A stretch of DNA of 64,000 bases. Origin: an uncultured Spirochaetaceae bacterium. Its GTDB lineage: Bacteria; Spirochaetota; Spirochaetia; JC444; Marispirochaetaceae. The stretch lies in the NCBI GenBank assembly GCA_964554875.1, contig CAZKQJ010000015.1, positions 10,302 through 74,301 of the forward strand, read 5' to 3'. How positions within the stretch are numbered: the first letter of the stretch is position 1; every line of letters begins with the position of its first letter. The notes under the pieces were generated by a model, which saw nothing but the letters and a program-made list of their open reading frames with translations, was not told where the DNA came from and made no database searches. The translations under genes and the position numbers were made by a program. Positions 9,137-59,727 of the stretch are shown here, in pieces.

Positions 9137-10470
9137 ACGCGCTTGTACTCCTTTATCTCCTTACGGATCCGCGCGGCAAGCTCGTTACGATGGACCCGGA
9201 CCTGCTCCATGGAGTCCCTGAAGCGGAGGGTGACCGTCCCGTCCTCCTTGGAGTCGTAGTCCACGGTAACACAGTAGGGAGTACCCCCCTCGTCCTGCCT
9301 GCGGTAGCGGCGGCCGATGGCTCCGGACTGATCGTAGAAAACGTTGAAGTCCTCCCGCAGAGCCGCCTCTATCTCTTTCGCAAGTTCGGCAATGCCGTCC
9401 TTCTTGACCAGGGGAAGAATCGCCACGGTTATGGGGGCAATTGCAGGATGAAAGTGCATCACCGTCCTGACATCCCCATCCTCGAGCTGTTCCTCCTCGT
9501 AGGCATCGGAGAGGACCATCAGTACCGAACGGGTAAGCCCCGCGGAGGTTTCAATTACGTAGGGAACATAGCGTTCCTTGGTCTGATCCTCCAGGTAGGT
9601 CTGGTCCTTACCGGAGAACTCCTGGTGCCGGCCCAGGTCGAAGTCGGTGCGGTTGTGGACCCCTTCCAGCTCCTGCCAGCCCATGGGGAAAAAATACTCG
9701 ATGTCGTAGGCGTCCTTGGCGTAGTGGGCCAGTTCGTCCGACCCGTGCTGGTGCCAGCGGAGCCGGTCGGAGCGGATACCCAGCTTCTTGTAGTAGCCCA
9801 TCCGCTGTTCTCGCCAATAGTTGAACCACTCGTCGTCGCTGCCGGGTTTAACGAAGAACTGCATCTCCATCTGCTCGAACTCGCAGGTTCTAAAGATAAA
9901 GTTCTTGGTGACGATCTCGTTGCGGAAGGCTTTTCCCACCTGGGCGATGCCGAAGGGAATCTTGACCCGGCTGGTCTGCACCACGTTGCGGAAGTTCACA
10001 AAGATTCCCTGGGCGGTTTCGGGGCGCAGGTAGACGATGTTCTTGTCGTCCTTCACCGGGCCCAGGTGGGTCTGGAACATCAGGTTGAACTGACGGGGTT
10101 CGGTGAAGGTCCCGGAGTTTCCACAGACCGGGCAGGGGGCGGAAAGATCGATGTGGTCCGCCCGGAAGCGGTTCTTGCACTCCTTGCAGTCAACAAGAGG
10201 ATCGGAAAAGTTGGCCACATGGCCCGATGCCTCCCAGACTTTGGGGTGCATCATGATTGCAGCATCCAGGCCCACGATGTTTTCGTGAAGCTGGGTCATC
10301 TCCTTCCACCAGAAGTTCTGAATATTCTTTTTCAGCTCCACCCCCATGGGGCCGTAGTCCCAGGCGGAGGAGAGGCCCCCGTAGATTTCGGAAGACTGAA
10401 ATACAAATCCCCGGCGCTTGCAGAGGGAGACGAGTTTGTCCATGGTTACTTCGGCGGTTTTTTCTGCCAT
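9133..10470 (-). CDS. glyQS: Glycine--tRNA ligase, alpha2 type
   Basis: YLRPETAQGIF, FRNEI, EFEQMEMQFF, ELEGVHNRTDFDL, IGRRYRRQDEGGTP. Confidence 0.98.
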   Translation of the reverse strand: MAEKTAEVTMDKLVSLCKRRGFVFQSSEIYGGLSSAWDYGPMGVELKKNIQNFWWKEMTQLHENIVGLDAAIMMHPKVWEASGHVANFSDPLVDCKECKNRFRADHIDLSAPCPVCGNSGTFTEPRQFNLMFQTHLGPVKDDKNIVYLRPETAQGIFVNFRNVVQTSRVKIPFGIAQVGKAFRNEIVTKNFIFRTCEFEQMEMQFFVKPGSDDEWFNYWREQRMGYYKKLGIRSDRLRWHQHGSDELAHYAKDAYDIEYFFPMGWQELEGVHNRTDFDLGRHQEFSGKDQTYLEDQTKERYVPYVIETSAGLTRSVLMVLSDAYEEEQLEDGDVRTVMHFHPAIAPITVAILPLVKKDGIAELAKEIEAALREDFNVFYDQSGAIGRRYRRQDEGGTPYCVTVDYDSKEDGTVTLRFRDSMEQVRVHRNELAARIRKEIKEYKRV

Positions 10471-23999: not shown

Positions 24000-25718
24000 A
24001 TGAGAAAGATTCGTATTGCATCGTCTGTTCTTATTGCAGTTCTGATTGCCCTTCTCGCCTCCTGCGGCAGTGCTGTCTACACGGCGGGCACCTACACAGG
24101 AGAGGGTCAGGGTCATGGAGGAACAATTCGTCTTGAAGTTTCGGTTGACGATACGTCCATAACCGATATCACAATCACGGAAAACCCGGAATCGGATTTC
24201 AGTCTGCCCGCCATCAACAAGCTGATCGACACCGCTATCGAGAAAAACAGCGGTGACATAGACAGCGTCAGCGGTGCGACGGAGACCTCCGCCGGTGTAA
24301 TAGCTGCAATTCAGGCAGCCCTGTCCAAGGCCCGTATCGGGGAAGCAGCCCCCCAGGCGGCTGAAAAGGAGAGCACAGGCGCCCGGGACATCAGCGTGGA
24401 TGTTGCCGTTATCGGTTCCGGCGGAGCGGGGCTCTCCGCGGCCATCGAGGCAAAGAATGCCGGCGCCTCTGTACTGATCATTGAAAAGATGGCAGTTGCC
24501 GGGGGTAACACCAATTACGCCACCGGAGGACTGAACGCCGCTGAAACCAGCTTTCAGAAGGAGCAGGGAATCGAGGATTCGGCGGAGCTCTTTTTTGAAG
24601 ACACCATGAAAGGCGGGAAAAACATCAACAACCCCGACCTGGTAGAGGTACTGACCACCCGTTCGGCGGAAACAGTCGCCTGGCTCACTGATCTTGGAGC
24701 AGATCTGAGCGATGTGGGACGTCTGGGGGGAGCCTCGGTCAACCGTTCCCACCGGCCGAAGGGCGGCAAGGCCGTCGGGGCCCACATTGCGGGAACCCTG
24801 CAGAAGGTCGCCGAAGCCGCGGGGGTCGAAATCAGGCTTGATAACCGGGCGGTCGCCCTGGTAAGCCGTAACGGCGCCGTGAGCGGCGTACAAGTCGAAT
24901 CACCCGAGGGAAGCTACACCATAAGCGCGAAGGCGGTCATTCTGGCAACAGGCGGTTTCGGTGCAAGCCCCGAGAAGATCGTCCAGTACAAACCCAAACT
25001 GGAGGGCTTTGGCACCACCAACCACCCCGGCGCCACCGGTGATGCCCTGGATATGGTAAAAGAACTCAATGTCGCCCTGGCGGATATTGAAGAAATCCAG
25101 ACCCACCCAACGGTTGTTCCGGTCAAGAATACCATGATCACCGAGGCTGTCCGGGGTAACGGAGCCATTCTGGTCAACCGTGAGGGAGTACGTTTTGTCT
25201 CCGAGCTTGAAACCCGGGATGTCGTCTCCGACGCCGAACTGGCCCAGGAGGGGGGAACAGCCTTCCTGCTCTTTGACCAGGGCGTACGGGAATCCCTGGC
25301 GGCCATTGAGAAATACGCCGGGAGCGGACTTCTTACCGAGGGCGCAAGTCTTGAGGAACTGGCCCGGACAATGGACATGGAGCCCGCTACCCTTGCAAAG
25401 ACCGTTGAAACCTACAACTCCTACGTTGTTGCCGGCAAGGACGATGATTTCGGCAGAGCCAGCATGCCCCGCCAGCTGACCCAGGGCCCCTACTACATGG
25501 TAGAGGTCGGCCCCGCTGTTCACCACACCATGGGCGGCATAAAGATCGATACCGAAGCCCGGGTCATCAACAAGGACGGAAATCCCGTTCCCGGACTCTA
25601 CGCCGCCGGTGAAGTTACCGGAGGAGTCCACGGCGCCAACCGTCTCGGCGGTAATGCCATGGCGGACATTACGGTCTTCGGACGCATTGCGGGGAAGAGC
25701 GCGGCGGAAGGAAGGTAA
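24000..25718 (+). CDS. Extracytoplasmic flavocytochrome-c/fumarate-reductase-family lipoprotein with an N-terminal FMN-binding domain
   Basis: AAGGAG RBS; lipobox LLASC; flavinylation motif DSVSGAT; GSGGAG; QTHPT, TEAVRG, ELETRD, HHTMGG, NRLGG. Confidence 0.9.
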   Translation: MRKIRIASSVLIAVLIALLASCGSAVYTAGTYTGEGQGHGGTIRLEVSVDDTSITDITITENPESDFSLPAINKLIDTAIEKNSGDIDSVSGATETSAGVIAAIQAALSKARIGEAAPQAAEKESTGARDISVDVAVIGSGGAGLSAAIEAKNAGASVLIIEKMAVAGGNTNYATGGLNAAETSFQKEQGIEDSAELFFEDTMKGGKNINNPDLVEVLTTRSAETVAWLTDLGADLSDVGRLGGASVNRSHRPKGGKAVGAHIAGTLQKVAEAAGVEIRLDNRAVALVSRNGAVSGVQVESPEGSYTISAKAVILATGGFGASPEKIVQYKPKLEGFGTTNHPGATGDALDMVKELNVALADIEEIQTHPTVVPVKNTMITEAVRGNGAILVNREGVRFVSELETRDVVSDAELAQEGGTAFLLFDQGVRESLAAIEKYAGSGLLTEGASLEELARTMDMEPATLAKTVETYNSYVVAGKDDDFGRASMPRQLTQGPYYMVEVGPAVHHTMGGIKIDTEARVINKDGNPVPGLYAAGEVTGGVHGANRLGGNAMADITVFGRIAGKSAAEGR

Positions 25719-56057: not shown

Positions 56058-57013
56058 GACGTAACAGTATTTTACGACGAGGCGGTTTTGCCCTACTGGT
56101 ACTGGCAATAGTTTTTTTCAGCATATTTCCATTTATTCAGATGCTCTCCATTTCCCTCAAGTATCCTGGAGAATGGGGCGATCCCGGACTTGTACCGGAC
56201 AAGATAAACCTCGAAGCCTACATGGAACTACTGAATATCGGCCAGAGTGCAAAGAATGTTCCCGAATCTGTTCTGAACCTTCTGAATGAAACCCCGGATC
56301 TGACAGATGAACAGAGGCAGGCAATTTTGCAGAAATACAGAAGTACGGGAGATGTTTTTCCTTTTCTGCGGTACTTTGCAAACTCCTTTCTGCTCTCCTT
56401 TTCCGCGGCCTTCATTACAGTTATATTCGCCATATTCGGGGCCTATTCCTTCAGCCGTCTGAGGTTTCCAGGACGCTCCCTTATTCAGCGGGGGGTTCTG
56501 TTCGTCTATATGTTCGGTGGAATCCTTCTTCTGATTCCTCTCTACAAGATGTTCGTCAGTATGGGCTGGATACGCATACCTCCGGGAGCCTTTTTAAGTC
56601 TGCTGATAATCTACGTCGTCCAGACCCTTCCGGTCTCCCTCTACATGCTGGGAAACTACTTCCGGACCATCCCCTACTCGATTGAAGAGGCTGCCATGAT
56701 TGAGGGATCGTCACGGTTCGGAACAATCTGGCGGATCATCATTCCCCTTTCCGTTGCCGCAATCGTAACCGTCTTTATCTACTGCTTCATGATTGCCTGG
56801 AACGAGTATCTGTTTGCCTCGGTATTCCTGAAGAATTTCAAGGACCTCTACACCCTTCCCATGGGGCTCAAGGCGCTTTTTACCTCCAAGAATGCGATAT
56901 GGGACCGGATAATGGCTGCCTCGGTACTGACTGCGACGCCGGTAATCATTCTGTTTATCTCGATTCAGAGGAACCTGGCGGGGGGAATGGCCGCGGGGGG
57001 CGTGAAAGAATAA
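56051..57013 (+). CDS. ycjP: Carbohydrate ABC permease (YcjP-like)
   Basis: AYSFSRLRFPG, IEEAAMIEG, AWNEYLFA. Confidence 0.8.
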   Translation: MVRRNSILRRGGFALLVLAIVFFSIFPFIQMLSISLKYPGEWGDPGLVPDKINLEAYMELLNIGQSAKNVPESVLNLLNETPDLTDEQRQAILQKYRSTGDVFPFLRYFANSFLLSFSAAFITVIFAIFGAYSFSRLRFPGRSLIQRGVLFVYMFGGILLLIPLYKMFVSMGWIRIPPGAFLSLLIIYVVQTLPVSLYMLGNYFRTIPYSIEEAAMIEGSSRFGTIWRIIIPLSVAAIVTVFIYCFMIAWNEYLFASVFLKNFKDLYTLPMGLKALFTSKNAIWDRIMAASVLTATPVIILFISIQRNLAGGMAAGGVKE

Positions 57014-57037
57014 GGGCTGCCCGTATACGGACAGCCC
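57014..57037. terminator. Hairpin between convergent genes
   Basis: gggctgcccg-tata-cggacagccc stem with one mismatch. Confidence 0.6.
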
Positions 57038-57070
57038 CCTTGTTGACAATGGGAAACTGGCGCTGATGAA

Positions 57071-57847
57071 TCAGCGCTTTGCTCCTGCAAGAGCCTCTTC
57101 CACCAGGGAATAGAAAGTATCGTAGGTAATAGTCGCTCCGGTGATTGTGTCAGGAGCAGACGTGTTCTGACTCTCCATGAAAGCCTTCTCTACAGCCTGA
57201 GCCTGTTCGTGCCACTCTTTTGTAGCATTAGAATTGGCTACCATACCGTATTCCCCGTCCCTGGAGCGCTGAACCTTGCTGGTTCCGCCATCTTCCGCAA
57301 AAGCATCCCAGTGGGCGGAAACCACGTACCCGGATGTTACCGTAAGATCCACAAAGTACTTCCATCCATTGTGGTACTCTTCATCCGAAGCTGAGTATGT
57401 GCCGTCCTTATAGGGACCGTAGCCCACAGGGCCCTTGGACAGAGCTTCAGCAGCAAGTTCGTAGAACTCATTATAATGGATGGTAGCTCCGCTGATGGTA
57501 TCGGGCATTTCGGTTGATGGATTCTCCTTGAAATACTCCTCCACCGCAGCGGCCTGAACATGCCAGTCTGCCTGGGCTCCCCCCTGGGCAACCATAGGGT
57601 AATCTCCTGCTTCGGAAACGGAAAGCTTGTCCGGCCCTGCGTTGATGTTGGAACCGTTCCAGAGTACTTCTGTGAATTCTCCACCCTCGACCTTCAGGGT
57701 CAGGTTATATTTCCAACCGCTTCTGGGAAATTCCGTCTGCTGGGCAAAATAGATACCGTCTTCATAGCCCGTTCCCTTCGAACTGCAGCTAACAAAAAGG
57801 GCGGCAGCGAGGGCCAGTACAACGGTAATTCTTACAATGTGTTTCAT
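57071..57847 (-). CDS. Lipoprotein with two FMN-binding domains (PplA / Treponema membrane-immunogen-like)
   Basis: Lipobox FVSC; two homologous halves (Y.DG.Y...GWKY), each ending in a flavinylation motif (DTISGAT, DTITGAT). Start at the ATG at 57847. Confidence 0.88.
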   Translation of the reverse strand: MKHIVRITVVLALAAALFVSCSSKGTGYEDGIYFAQQTEFPRSGWKYNLTLKVEGGEFTEVLWNGSNINAGPDKLSVSEAGDYPMVAQGGAQADWHVQAAAVEEYFKENPSTEMPDTISGATIHYNEFYELAAEALSKGPVGYGPYKDGTYSASDEEYHNGWKYFVDLTVTSGYVVSAHWDAFAEDGGTSKVQRSRDGEYGMVANSNATKEWHEQAQAVEKAFMESQNTSAPDTITGATITYDTFYSLVEEALAGAKR

Positions 57848-58035
57848 TGAAACCTCCAATCCTCTCATATTGGCCTTTTAATATAGCACAAACAATATAC
57901 TATCTTATAATGGATTTGTATATGTTTTTCAATATATTTAACGCATATTATAGATATAATTCTTTATTATCTCGGATAAGAGAGCTTTCTTTCAGCTAAA
58001 ATTCACAAAATACAAAATAAAATCACAATAAATAA

Positions 58036-58064
58036 TTGACAGTATCTTACTTTACTTATACTGT
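58036..58064 (+). promoter_or_regulatory. Sigma70 promoter overlapped by an inverted repeat
   Basis: TTGACA (58036-41), 17 bp, TACTGT (58059-64), AT-rich UP region; ACAGTAT-N12-ATACTGT spans both boxes. Confidence 0.65.
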
Positions 58065-58136
58065 ATTCATGTTATATAAATTTTTCTTGATATTCTGTCT
58101 CCAAAACAGACAGAGACAAGGGAAAAGGAGAACGGC

Positions 58137-58742
58137 ATGAAGATAATCCGTTTGATGGTAATTGCACTGGTACTGATCCTGGTATTCGGCGCCTGCAGTG
58201 GCAAAGCCGCCGGAGATAAAAAAGAAGAAAGCACCGTCGAAACAGCTGAACCTGCCAAGGGTATTACCCTGGAGAACGCCTTCTACTATACACATGTGGA
58301 CGGGCACAAGAAGGAGACCCAGATTCCGGCGGTTGTTCTTTTTGAATATGAACAGCTGAAAACCGTTCGCTACCAGATTGCTTATATTGCCTGTACCTGC
58401 CGAGGACCGGAAGTAAACTACTGGTCCGTGGCAAATGTGGAGATCAACAAATCCAACCTTACTGTCGACCATATTTCCTACTACGAGGATTCAACCGAGC
58501 ACTATGTGGCAGGGATGTACGGCGACAGCACCGAATCCTGGGATGGAACACCGGTAAAAGAACTTTTCGACGGTTTTATCCAGGACAGTATTCTCGGCAA
58601 ATCTGAAAGCGAGATAGACGCTTATGTACCCATGCACGGGAAGGTTGACACCTACACAGGTGCCACGGTTACTCCCAATAATGCCATGCGTATGCTTCAG
58701 GGACTCTTTGAGTACCATAAAGAACACTACGGCAGCAACTAA
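58137..58742 (+). CDS. Uncharacterised lipoprotein with a CxC motif and a C-terminal FMN-flavinylation motif
   Basis: AAGGAG RBS; lipobox FGAC; IACTCRG; VDTYTGATVT. Confidence 0.75.
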   Translation: MKIIRLMVIALVLILVFGACSGKAAGDKKEESTVETAEPAKGITLENAFYYTHVDGHKKETQIPAVVLFEYEQLKTVRYQIAYIACTCRGPEVNYWSVANVEINKSNLTVDHISYYEDSTEHYVAGMYGDSTESWDGTPVKELFDGFIQDSILGKSESEIDAYVPMHGKVDTYTGATVTPNNAMRMLQGLFEYHKEHYGSN

Positions 58743-58774
58743 GAACTTCTGCCAAAAAATAGAGGAATAGAACT

Positions 58775-59671
58775 ATGATCAAGAAGACAACAATTATACT
58801 GTTTACCTTAATGCTGGCTCTCTCCATTGTCTCCTGCGGCAAGTCAGGTGCTGACGCGGGGCTTACGGGAAGTGAAGAAATCACCATGGAGAATATCGAT
58901 CAGTACCTCGACAGGGATGCCAGATTCATCGATCTGCGGAATTTCGCCGACATGTTCAACGGCGGCTACATCGCAGGCTTCGAGGTTGTACCCTTTTTCC
59001 AGTACCTGGAAGGCCGCGCCCTGGTCCGCAACAATGGCTGGGAGTTCTCCGAGGTCGACGTAATTGAACCGGCAATGCTGGAGAACATCTTCGGTTCAAA
59101 GGAAGGCGTAATCATCCTGATGTGCGGTTCCGGAACACGGGCAGGATATGTAATGGACGCCCTTAACAGCCTGGGCTACACCAAGGTTATCAACGCCGGA
59201 GGAATCCGGGATTACAAAGGCGCAAACAAGGTCCTTGGGGACGGCAGCTATGCCGGTCAGATGGCCCTTCCCGCAGAGGTCACCATGGAAAACATTGACC
59301 AGTACCTGTACAGGGACGGGGCCAAATACGTCGACCTGCGTAATGTTTCCGATATGTATACCGGCGGATACATTGAAAGCTTCGAGCTCGTCTCCTTCTT
59401 TGAGTACCTCGAAAACAACGCCCTGGTCCGGAACAACGGTTGGGAGTTCTCGGAAGCCGATGTAGTTGAACCTGCAATTCTGGAAAACATCTTCGGCTCC
59501 AGGAACCGGGAAGTATTCCTTATGTGCGGATCCGGAACCCGTGCGGGTTATGTAAAAGATGCCCTGGAGAACCTCGGCTATACCACCGTATACAACGTAG
59601 GCGGGATTCGGGACTACAAGGGAGACCACAAGGTCTTTGGTGACGAGTCATTCAGCCTGAAGATCCAGTAG
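58775..59671 (+). CDS. Tandem rhodanese-domain lipoprotein
   Basis: Lipobox IVSC; two 133-aa repeats, each with (I/V)DLRN, GYI, LMCGSGTRA and N(A/V)GG. Confidence 0.88.
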   Translation: MIKKTTIILFTLMLALSIVSCGKSGADAGLTGSEEITMENIDQYLDRDARFIDLRNFADMFNGGYIAGFEVVPFFQYLEGRALVRNNGWEFSEVDVIEPAMLENIFGSKEGVIILMCGSGTRAGYVMDALNSLGYTKVINAGGIRDYKGANKVLGDGSYAGQMALPAEVTMENIDQYLYRDGAKYVDLRNVSDMYTGGYIESFELVSFFEYLENNALVRNNGWEFSEADVVEPAILENIFGSRNREVFLMCGSGTRAGYVKDALENLGYTTVYNVGGIRDYKGDHKVFGDESFSLKIQ

Positions 59672-59691
59672 TATTCAGATTATTCACCCCG

Positions 59692-59727
59692 GCTCGGGTC
59701 CTTTATAAACAGGATCCGGGCTTTTTT
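59692..59727 (+). terminator. Intrinsic terminator after the rhodanese gene
   Basis: 11-bp stem gctcgggtcct / aggatccgggc followed by TTTTTT. Confidence 0.8.

Follow-up and report, generated by a model that had tools for sequence, protein, structure and literature searches.

What might a lipoprotein with a flavinylation motif and a lipoprotein rhodanese accomplish together on the outside of a spirochaete cell? The question is raised by a locus in a 64,000-nucleotide stretch of DNA, hereafter the window, which spans positions 10,302 to 74,301 of contig CAZKQJ010000015.1 in assembly GCA_964554875.1 (contig C15 in our numbering) and belongs to a Marispirochaeta with a 3.95-Mb genome. Here, three lipoprotein genes, which we term A, B, and C, share one AT-rich divergent control region. 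The original prediction, made from the window by itself, described them as a PplA-like protein with two [S/T]GAT motifs, a protein combining a CxC with a TGAT motif, and a double rhodanese with two CGSGTR loops, and proposed that the three form a periplasmic relay of electrons from flavin to sulfur. All three open reading frames (ORFs), their lipoboxes (FVSC in A, FGAC in B, and IVSC in C), and their motifs are borne out by our analysis, including both loops and both rhodanese units of C (Table 1). The trio as a unit is not: what is conserved is B together with C, a pair that probably carries out flavin-driven sulfur chemistry outside the cytoplasm.

B and C as a conserved gene pair

Across 185,579 species genomes, a pattern scan yielded 35 B loci, and a C-type rhodanese adjoins B in 33 of these independent loci; of the remaining two, one is an additional B paralogue in a trio-bearing genome and the other is on a contig of 1.6 kb. 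The loci come from two phyla and one additional metagenome-assembled genome (MAG), namely from Spirochaetota, from Acholeplasmataceae, Izimaplasma, and other Mycoplasmatota, and from the single Lachnospirales MAG. The gene order is B-C in the spirochaetes and C-B in the other lineages. Among 61 relatives of the host, B occurs in five genomes and a high-scoring C-type rhodanese in exactly the same five, the two being adjacent in four and merged into a single 405-aa protein in the fifth (genome G030). An even sample of 401 Spirochaetota genomes has B in only seven, with the rhodanese adjacent at every readable locus (G000, G382, G301, and G174). Clustering of all flanking ORFs revealed no other universally linked gene. 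None of the 35 loci is from Sediminispirochaeta, which is weak evidence, as the search was pattern based. In two congeners devoid of the pair (G002 and G005), the DNA is too diverged for an empty-site comparison.

Domain fusions tell the same story. B is fused to one or two rhodanese domains in several proteins (P0243, P0244, P0267, P0269, and the 405-aa protein of locus L012), is preceded by a rhodanese in another (P0245), and comes after a canonical FMN_bind domain, named for flavin mononucleotide (FMN), in P0255 and in the Treponema-like G301, where the gene for the fusion is followed by that for a rhodanese lipoprotein. The existence of B-rhodanese fusions with either partner first is strong evidence for a joint action of the two, and, along with the 33 of 35 independent loci, it indicates that their pairing is not due to chance. 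B-C is a rare, mobile accessory pair with a linkage that is close to obligate. The functional coupling of B and C put forward in the original prediction is thereby upheld by their adjacency in nearly all B-bearing genomes and by their fusion in both orders elsewhere; the conservation of the gene neighborhood, which it suggested as a check, holds for B and C and mostly does not for A.

Two of the fused proteins (L012:919-2136, minus strand, and P0244) display an extra DAVSGA[ST] motif right after the signal peptide. Such motifs may be short stand-alone flavinylation tags.

Selenocysteine variants of the CTCR motif

The C86-T-C88-R motif of B is invariant in both close and distant members of its family, which amounts to 97 clusters when 1.84 billion representative proteins are searched exhaustively with its profile. 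In at least five loci (L039, L064, L065, L066, and L067), the second Cys of this motif is specified by an in-frame TGA, and the apparently "split" B gene of the Lachnospirales locus results from a TGA exactly at this codon. When the TGA is read as selenocysteine (Sec), the five loci encode full-length family members, each with one TGA and the motif C-T-U-R. Seven representative clusters in the protein database stop right after "...CT". In L066, which is from a complete genome, B is directly followed by the genes for tRNA-Sec (selC), selD, selA, and selB, and this selD itself carries a Sec codon. Decoding of TGA as Trp (genetic code 4) was rejected, since each gene has a single TGA, whose position is always that of the invariant Cys, and the neighboring genes are intact under code 11; the tRNA-Sec, selD, selA, and selB genes adjacent to B in L066 also speak against it. 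These observations indicate that the B family is probably an uncatalogued bacterial selenoprotein family with the signature C-T-U-R. No NCBIfam model matches the Sec-type B proteins, and a 2026 review of prokaryotic selenoproteins includes neither "FMN," "flavin," nor "lipoprotein"; none of its CxU entries shown fits the B family. No Rfam selenocysteine insertion sequence (SECIS) element was detected in the Sec-variant loci. A hairpin, AUAAGCA-GGU-UGCUUAU, is positioned about 22 nt after the UGA in L066 and L064 (z = -2.05 and -0.9), and an ad hoc hairpin search of the other Sec-variant loci returned nothing convincing.

Where Cys and Sec replace one another at a single position, the residue is classically recognized as catalytic and redox active (PMC1794560). 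Homology predicts that Cys88 in the B of the window is such a residue because Sec replaces it in relatives, and we regard the CxC center of B, on this pattern of exchange, as catalytic. The window's own B has TGC at Cys88 and is hence not a selenoprotein; no sel genes are found near B-C in the window. A metal site formed by the CxC with an invariant His and Glu is a less likely interpretation of the same residues, and the Cys/Sec exchange speaks against it. As a separate observation, a hairpin within the coding sequence of B (58398-58433, -24.6 kcal/mol, z of about -4) starts from the Cys88 codon; it is present in two other Marispirochaeta and weaker elsewhere, and it may be either a by-product of the GP...WS codons or a SECIS-like relic.

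Domain architectures of B and C

Both A and B are exported and bear the Dxx[ST]GA[ST] acceptor motif of flavinylated proteins, in the form DTYTGAT (D171-T177) in B. Across the B family this motif drifts (GSS, NSS, GNS), yet the acceptor Ser/Thr177 is kept. An AlphaFold2 model of B (predicted local distance difference test score of 80) displays a five-stranded sheet (residues 48-114) with the CTCR motif at the end of strand 3, followed by helices; Thr177 is at the N-terminal end of the final one, an arrangement shared with FMN_bind domains. A fold search with this model recovered no match in the PDB better than E=0.14 and none among the viral models of BFVD better than E=0.027, and a B profile run against PDB sequences picked up signal-peptide matches only; B has no curated-family match. 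It is most aptly viewed as a divergent FMN_bind-like core combined with a family-specific N-terminal sheet that bears the redox center.

C is made up of two rhodanese units that are 70% identical to each other and is 92% identical to its M. aestuarii counterpart; taken together, the B and C proteins of that species share 91-92% identity with those of the window. It matches the rhodanese domain PF00581 over two stretches (41.4 bits; cut-off, 22.2) and aligns with PDB 6MXV and PspE. Both of its loops are of the six-residue C-X4-R type with an active-type Cys (Cys117 and Cys251), and the catalytic Cys is kept in all main-clade partners and in the distant ones, with the exception of L042 and L052. 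We propose that C would hold sulfane sulfur as a persulfide on the loop Cys.

Flavinylation genes, candidate electron donors, and the place of A

The genes for flavinylation and the possible electron donors that the original prediction suggested looking for elsewhere in the genome are indeed there: one ApbE lipoprotein (C5:32061-32894, 322 bits), two RnfD/G clusters, and, on another contig than B-C, an Ndh2 of 709 aa whose C-terminal part is a membrane domain (C3:68182-70311) and which adjoins a heptaprenyl-diphosphate-synthase-like gene (both within C3:68182-71281). Three DsbD genes are also encoded away from B-C. In other lineages, such genes come much closer to the pair. In the two Mycoplasmatota loci L042 and L052, a rhodanese-like gene and B are directly followed by apbE, and the divergent upstream genes are Fe-hydrogenase, rnfC, rnfD, and an rnfG with two FMN_bind domains. 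The order in L066 is rnfG-E-A-B, tandem rhodanese, B. With apbE and rnf as neighbors, the pair lies inside flavinylation-associated clusters as defined by Méheust et al. In Acholeplasmataceae and Izimaplasma, the pair is set between a CPDC thioredoxin lipoprotein and a DsbD_TM protein that is 390-420 aa long and carries an N-terminal CxxC, and in Izimaplasma a further FMN_bind lipoprotein is encoded 3' of this block.

The arrangement typical of Listeria-type extracellular electron transfer (EET), an FMN_bind lipoprotein clustered with a membrane-domain Ndh, is absent from the window's genome and present in G030, where an A-like gene lies beside Ndh2 and a polyprenyl synthase (L063:2206-6088). 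The window's genome keeps Ndh2 and the synthase, yet its sole PplA-like gene sits beside B-C. It further encodes two exported lipoproteins of 609 and 592 aa that resemble fumarate reductase and combine FMN_bind with a domain for flavin adenine dinucleotide (FAD) (window positions 24111-24326, that is, C15:34412-34627, and C6:64621-64830); these are likely to be further clients of the same periplasmic flavin chain. Around position 190733 of contig C1, there is also a 681-aa cytoplasmic flavoprotein of the coenzyme A disulfide reductase (CoADR) type with two rhodanese domains, which resembles NADH-dependent persulfide reductase (Npsr) and has an SFANCG active site and a CASGAR loop. Reduction of persulfides may thus take place in the host both inside the cytoplasm and outside it.

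A itself contains two acceptor motifs (DTISGAT and DTITGAT) and matches the Pfam FMN_bind domain (PF04205) with 36.6 bits against a cut-off of 22. Its closest solved structure is 2KZX (E=1.4e-22), and it is also homologous to the FMN_bind-like 3O6U. The NCBIfam PplA model NF041941 aligns with it at E=3.9e-16 and 59.1 bits, far below the cut-off of 325; going by its sequence, A is PplA-like in architecture only. With respect to B-C, A is a facultative neighbor: only 8 of about 37 loci have an A-like gene beside the pair, and among the 61 relatives A is its divergent neighbor only in Marispirochaeta, Oceanispirochaeta, and Spirochaeta UBA5339. This sparse association, together with the presence of A-like genes in 25 of the 61 relatives versus B-C in 5, would fit a scenario in which A stands outside the system, its synteny is a lineage-specific feature, and the electrons of B-C come from elsewhere through an RnfG or DsbD route. 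The A-like gene of G030, which sits with Ndh2 and the polyprenyl synthase away from the B-rhodanese fusion of that genome, points the same way. However, all five relatives with B-C have an A-like gene, and in four of them, from three genera, it is the divergent neighbor with 68-91% identity. A canonical FMN_bind partner recurs upstream (L020 and L022), downstream (L047), or fused to B (P0255 and G301), extra DAVSGA[ST] tags are found on fusions, and A is the only PplA-like gene of this genome. We therefore consider it rather unlikely that A is a bystander. The recurrence of a canonical FMN unit as neighbor, fusion, or tag suggests a flavin-to-flavin relay into B.

Relationship to known systems

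The closest functional parallel is offered by Npsr, in which sulfane sulfur is accepted first by a surface Cys of the rhodanese and then reduced to H2S by a Cys next to the flavin (PMC7969121). Like the Npsr/CoADR-rhodanese proteins of Shewanella loihica and Archaeoglobus fulgidus (PMC7969121), B-C would bring together a flavin, an adjacent redox Cys, and a rhodanese Cys that takes sulfane sulfur; the product, as proposed for B-C, would likewise be H2S, and all three parts are on one chain in some organisms. Npsr differs in being cytoplasmic and in possessing a pyridine-nucleotide-disulfide-oxidoreductase fold with noncovalent FAD, NADH as donor, and bound CoA. In contrast, B is exported as a lipoprotein and is about 180 residues long; its redox center is a Cys-x-Cys/Sec, its flavinylation motif is of the phosphoester type, and neither B nor C matches a pyridine-nucleotide-disulfide oxidoreductase (FAD/NADH) model in Pfam or NCBIfam. 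The resemblance of B-C to Npsr is functional only.

B shares with RnfG, NqrC, and Listeria PplA (PMC8238504; Huang et al. 2024, PMC11334425) its export and a Dxx[ST]GA[ST] motif before the C-terminal helix, as well as the company of such carriers: ApbE in the genome, beside the gene in some lineages, and Rnf or Ndh2 as neighbors. Unlike these FMN_bind carriers, it scores at or below the Pfam cut-off and has an extra N-terminal beta-sheet with the predicted catalytic CxC. The surveys of flavinylated systems by Méheust et al. 2021 (PMC8238504) and Huang et al. 2024 (PMC11334425) do not mention rhodaneses or the CTCR family. Clusters with DsbD, DUF3570, thioredoxin-like, and DUF4266 proteins (PMC8238504) are comparable in that they couple extracytoplasmic thiol-disulfide and flavin chemistry and include a conserved CXC, that of DUF4266. 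Nevertheless, B differs from the DUF4266-type clusters in carrying the CXC and the flavin motif on one protein and in having a rhodanese as the constant partner; none of the seven proteins scanned has a Pfam match to DUF3570 or DUF4266. Extracytoplasmic rhodaneses tied to electron chains, and the use of Sec and Cys for periplasmic S-S cleavage, are also known from Wolinella Sud/PsrABC, Geobacter ExtH, and MccSep (PMC5877670, PMC13510729). These systems employ molybdopterin or multiheme cytochromes, whereas B-C is devoid of heme, Mo, and Fe-S motifs and appears to rely on a covalent flavin.

Our literature search uncovered no paper that links ApbE or flavinylation to a rhodanese in this sense, and B-C is apparently a previously undescribed pair of surface lipoproteins. 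An analogy may also be drawn with high-Mr thioredoxin reductase, in which electrons travel from FAD through a CxxxxC to a C-terminal Gly-Cys-Sec-Gly. As in B, a flavin feeds a vicinal Cys/Sec pair that has Cys and Sec forms across organisms; unlike B, that enzyme has an unrelated fold, is cytoplasmic, and depends on NADPH.

Proposed mechanism and alternatives

How could these parts work together? We give a probability of roughly 45% to the reading that B-C is an extracytoplasmic analogue of Npsr, in which electrons would pass from FMN to the Cys-x-Cys and on to the rhodanese persulfide, with release of H2S; the direction and the substrate are what we infer. ApbE would attach FMN to Thr177 of B, as its motif implies, and the flavin, presumably in contact with the Cys86-x-Cys88 center, would exchange electrons with it. 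The sulfane sulfur on which this center would then act would be bound to the loop cysteines of C in the form of a persulfide. In the favored, reductive direction, sulfur from polysulfide, S0-derived, or organic persulfide sources would be captured on C, the dithiol of B would release it as H2S, and the resulting disulfide would be rereduced by FMNH2. In the window's organism, the supply of electrons would probably run via the PplA-like carrier A, fed by an Ndh2/quinone chain or by Rnf. Reduction of sulfane sulfur is favored because the parts match the logic of Npsr and because Sec is essential for periplasmic polysulfide reduction by MccSep (PMC13510729). In a fuller and more tentative form, B-C could possibly represent a new class of extracytoplasmic sulfane-sulfur (polysulfide/persulfide) reductase, composed of a rhodanese and a Cys-x-Cys/Sec protein with covalent flavin and connected to Rnf or to flavin-based EET, with the B family as an uncatalogued C-T-U-R selenoprotein family.

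Several observations weigh against this proposal. The match of B to FMN_bind is borderline (20.8 bits by hmmscan and 22 bits in the genome search; cut-off, 22), and hhalign places the B family collinear with A-type FMN_bind domains over B residues 99-182 with a probability of just 2%; the flavinylation of Thr177 by ApbE is itself a step that we infer. An AlphaFold2 model of a natural B-rhodanese fusion (predicted template modeling score of 0.44) has a disordered linker and no predicted interface. In the Rnf/ApbE-linked loci L042 (7094-7912) and L052 (5066-5902), the rhodanese Cys is shifted within the loop (ADGCIR, not CxxGxR); the B motif there is NSS or GSS, and the two proteins seem to have drifted together. 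No Psr/Phs, Sox, or Dsr genes are linked to the pair in any locus, and the DsbD and thioredoxin neighbors seen in some lineages fit protein-thiol chemistry equally well. Finally, the redox potentials of FMN and of the S0/HS- couple allow either direction.

The last point bears on the possibility that the same module works in the opposite direction and is a minimal oxidase of sulfide (or of thiols), which, like sulfide:quinone oxidoreductase (SQR) or flavocytochrome-c sulfide dehydrogenase, would serve detoxification in sulfidic habitats. HS- would attack the disulfide of B, the sulfane sulfur would go to C, and the electrons would flow through FMN and A to FMN_bind reductases or quinone. A flavin, a redox Cys pair, and a rhodanese acceptor are the layout of the SQR pathway too, the two exported FMN_bind-fumarate-reductase-like lipoproteins could accept the electrons, and the hosts are, by the titles of their records, anaerobes of sediments, mats, and soda or saline sites. 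We nonetheless regard this direction as unlikely, given that the neighbors Rnf, Fe-hydrogenase, DsbD, and thioredoxin are electron-supplying systems, that the pair has no linked gene for a persulfide dioxygenase or for the handling of sulfite, and that a Cys-x-Sec center is typical of reductive S-S cleavage (PMC13510729). If the substrate were instead protein disulfides or low-molecular-weight thiols, B would be a flavin-linked disulfide reductase, oxidase, or isomerase for maintenance of the envelope, and the single-Cys rhodanese would serve as its redox partner, a part that E. coli PspE can play when disulfide bonds are formed. CxC motifs do shuttle disulfides in sulfhydryl oxidases, the pair is bracketed by DsbD_TM (CxxC) and the CPDC thioredoxin lipoprotein in Acholeplasmataceae and Izimaplasma, and DsbD, thioredoxin-like, and CXC (DUF4266) proteins populate flavinylation clusters (Méheust et al., PMC8238504). 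What renders this function improbable is the partner, which never has the thioredoxin fold and is in every case a rhodanese, often duplicated, whose C-X4-R loop has the length seen in sulfurtransferases; moreover, the spirochaete loci have no DsbD or thioredoxin neighbor, despite the three DsbD genes elsewhere in the window's genome. The Sec variants raise the thought that the pair reduces or captures another chalcogen or metalloid (selenite, tellurite, or arsenate) or even acquires selenium by way of a rhodanese perselenide. The pair of L066 has rnf on one side and selC-selD-selA-selB on the other; ExtH, a rhodanese lipoprotein of Geobacter, is connected with the reduction of selenite and tellurite (PMC5877670), and MccSep reduces selenite as well. 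Yet sel genes often adjoin selenoprotein genes for reasons unrelated to the substrate, and most family members, including that of the window, use Cys and have no sel genes nearby. The six-residue loop, too, is of the sulfurtransferase type rather than the seven-residue type of arsenate reductases and phosphatases, and this function appears very improbable to us.

Organization of the locus

The 289-bp region between A and B is about 30% G+C, and the wider interval 57750-58199 has a G+C content of 30-32%, versus ~52% in its surroundings. It includes a TTGACA, which is overlapped by a perfect inverted repeat, ACAGTAT-N12-ATACTGT (58039-58064), upstream of B. This repeat is kept in three Marispirochaeta genomes, is not seen in Oceanispirochaeta or UBA5339, and looks like an operator. 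A comparison of the control region and operon with Rfam gave no riboswitch or other RNA family at E<=1. The ATG at 57847 is the likely start of A (258 aa) because this second ATG of the ORF is preceded, seven bases upstream, by GGAGG. Terminator-like hairpins close both A and C; therefore, A is monocistronic and B-C is a two-gene operon.

Table 1. Features of the A-B-C locus (positions in the window) and Sec-type homologues of B (positions in their own loci)
Feature	Position	Strand	Remarks
Gene A, PplA-like lipoprotein	57071..57847	minus	ORF open back to 57868; two FMN_bind units
DTITGAT motif of A	57131-57151
DTISGAT motif of A	57482-57502
Terminator-like hairpin 3' of A	57012..57039	minus	12 pairs, 8 G-C, then T-rich tail
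AT-rich divergent control region between A and B	57848..58136	no strand
TTGACA in control region	58036-58041
Gene B, lipoprotein with CTCR and DTYTGAT	58137..58742	plus	small uncharacterized family
CTCR motif of B	58392-58403
DTYTGAT motif of B	58647-58667
Gene C, tandem-rhodanese lipoprotein	58775..59671	plus	two CGSGTR loops
CGSGTR loop of C, Cys117	59123-59140
CGSGTR loop of C, Cys251	59525-59542
Terminator-like hairpin 3' of B-C	59691..59722	plus	12 pairs, then TTTTT
Sec-type B gene	L066:4001-4666		single in-frame TGA
Sec-type B gene	L039:7800-8561		single in-frame TGA
Sec-type B gene	L064:219-632		single in-frame TGA
Sec-type B gene	L065:4001-4750		single in-frame TGA
Sec-type B gene	L067:128-817		single in-frame TGA

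The trio is set between a sugar ATP-binding cassette (ABC) transporter operon and a group of small lipoprotein and stress genes. The downstream segment 59806-61532 encodes a small lipoprotein, which has weak CsgG/LpoB-like matches, a beta-flower-like protein of 109 aa, and an exported protein of 230 aa that belongs to no family; next come a universal stress protein (Usp) gene and a tripartite ATP-independent periplasmic (TRAP) transporter. None of the genes downstream of C is linked to B-C in other genomes.

Implications

Extracytosolic flavinylation is a recently recognized third mode of envelope electron transfer, and the published surveys list no link from it to a sulfurtransferase. If the reading of B-C as a sulfane-sulfur reductase is true, the pair would be a testable enzyme for the handling of S0, polysulfide, or persulfide in fermentative spirochaetes, Izimaplasma, and their relatives from sulfidic sediments, without Mo or heme enzymes, and the Npsr mechanism would be extended to the periplasm. 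The Sec variants would add a selenoprotein family that has been missed by current catalogues and gene callers, with seven database clusters truncated at the UGA. More generally, anaerobes would have in B-C, besides Mo-Psr, MccSep, and NSR/Npsr, another way of transferring electrons to sulfur from the environment, in this case in fermentative spirochaetes and wall-less Bacillota relatives. For a fermenter, the gain would be an electron sink or a defense against reactive sulfur.

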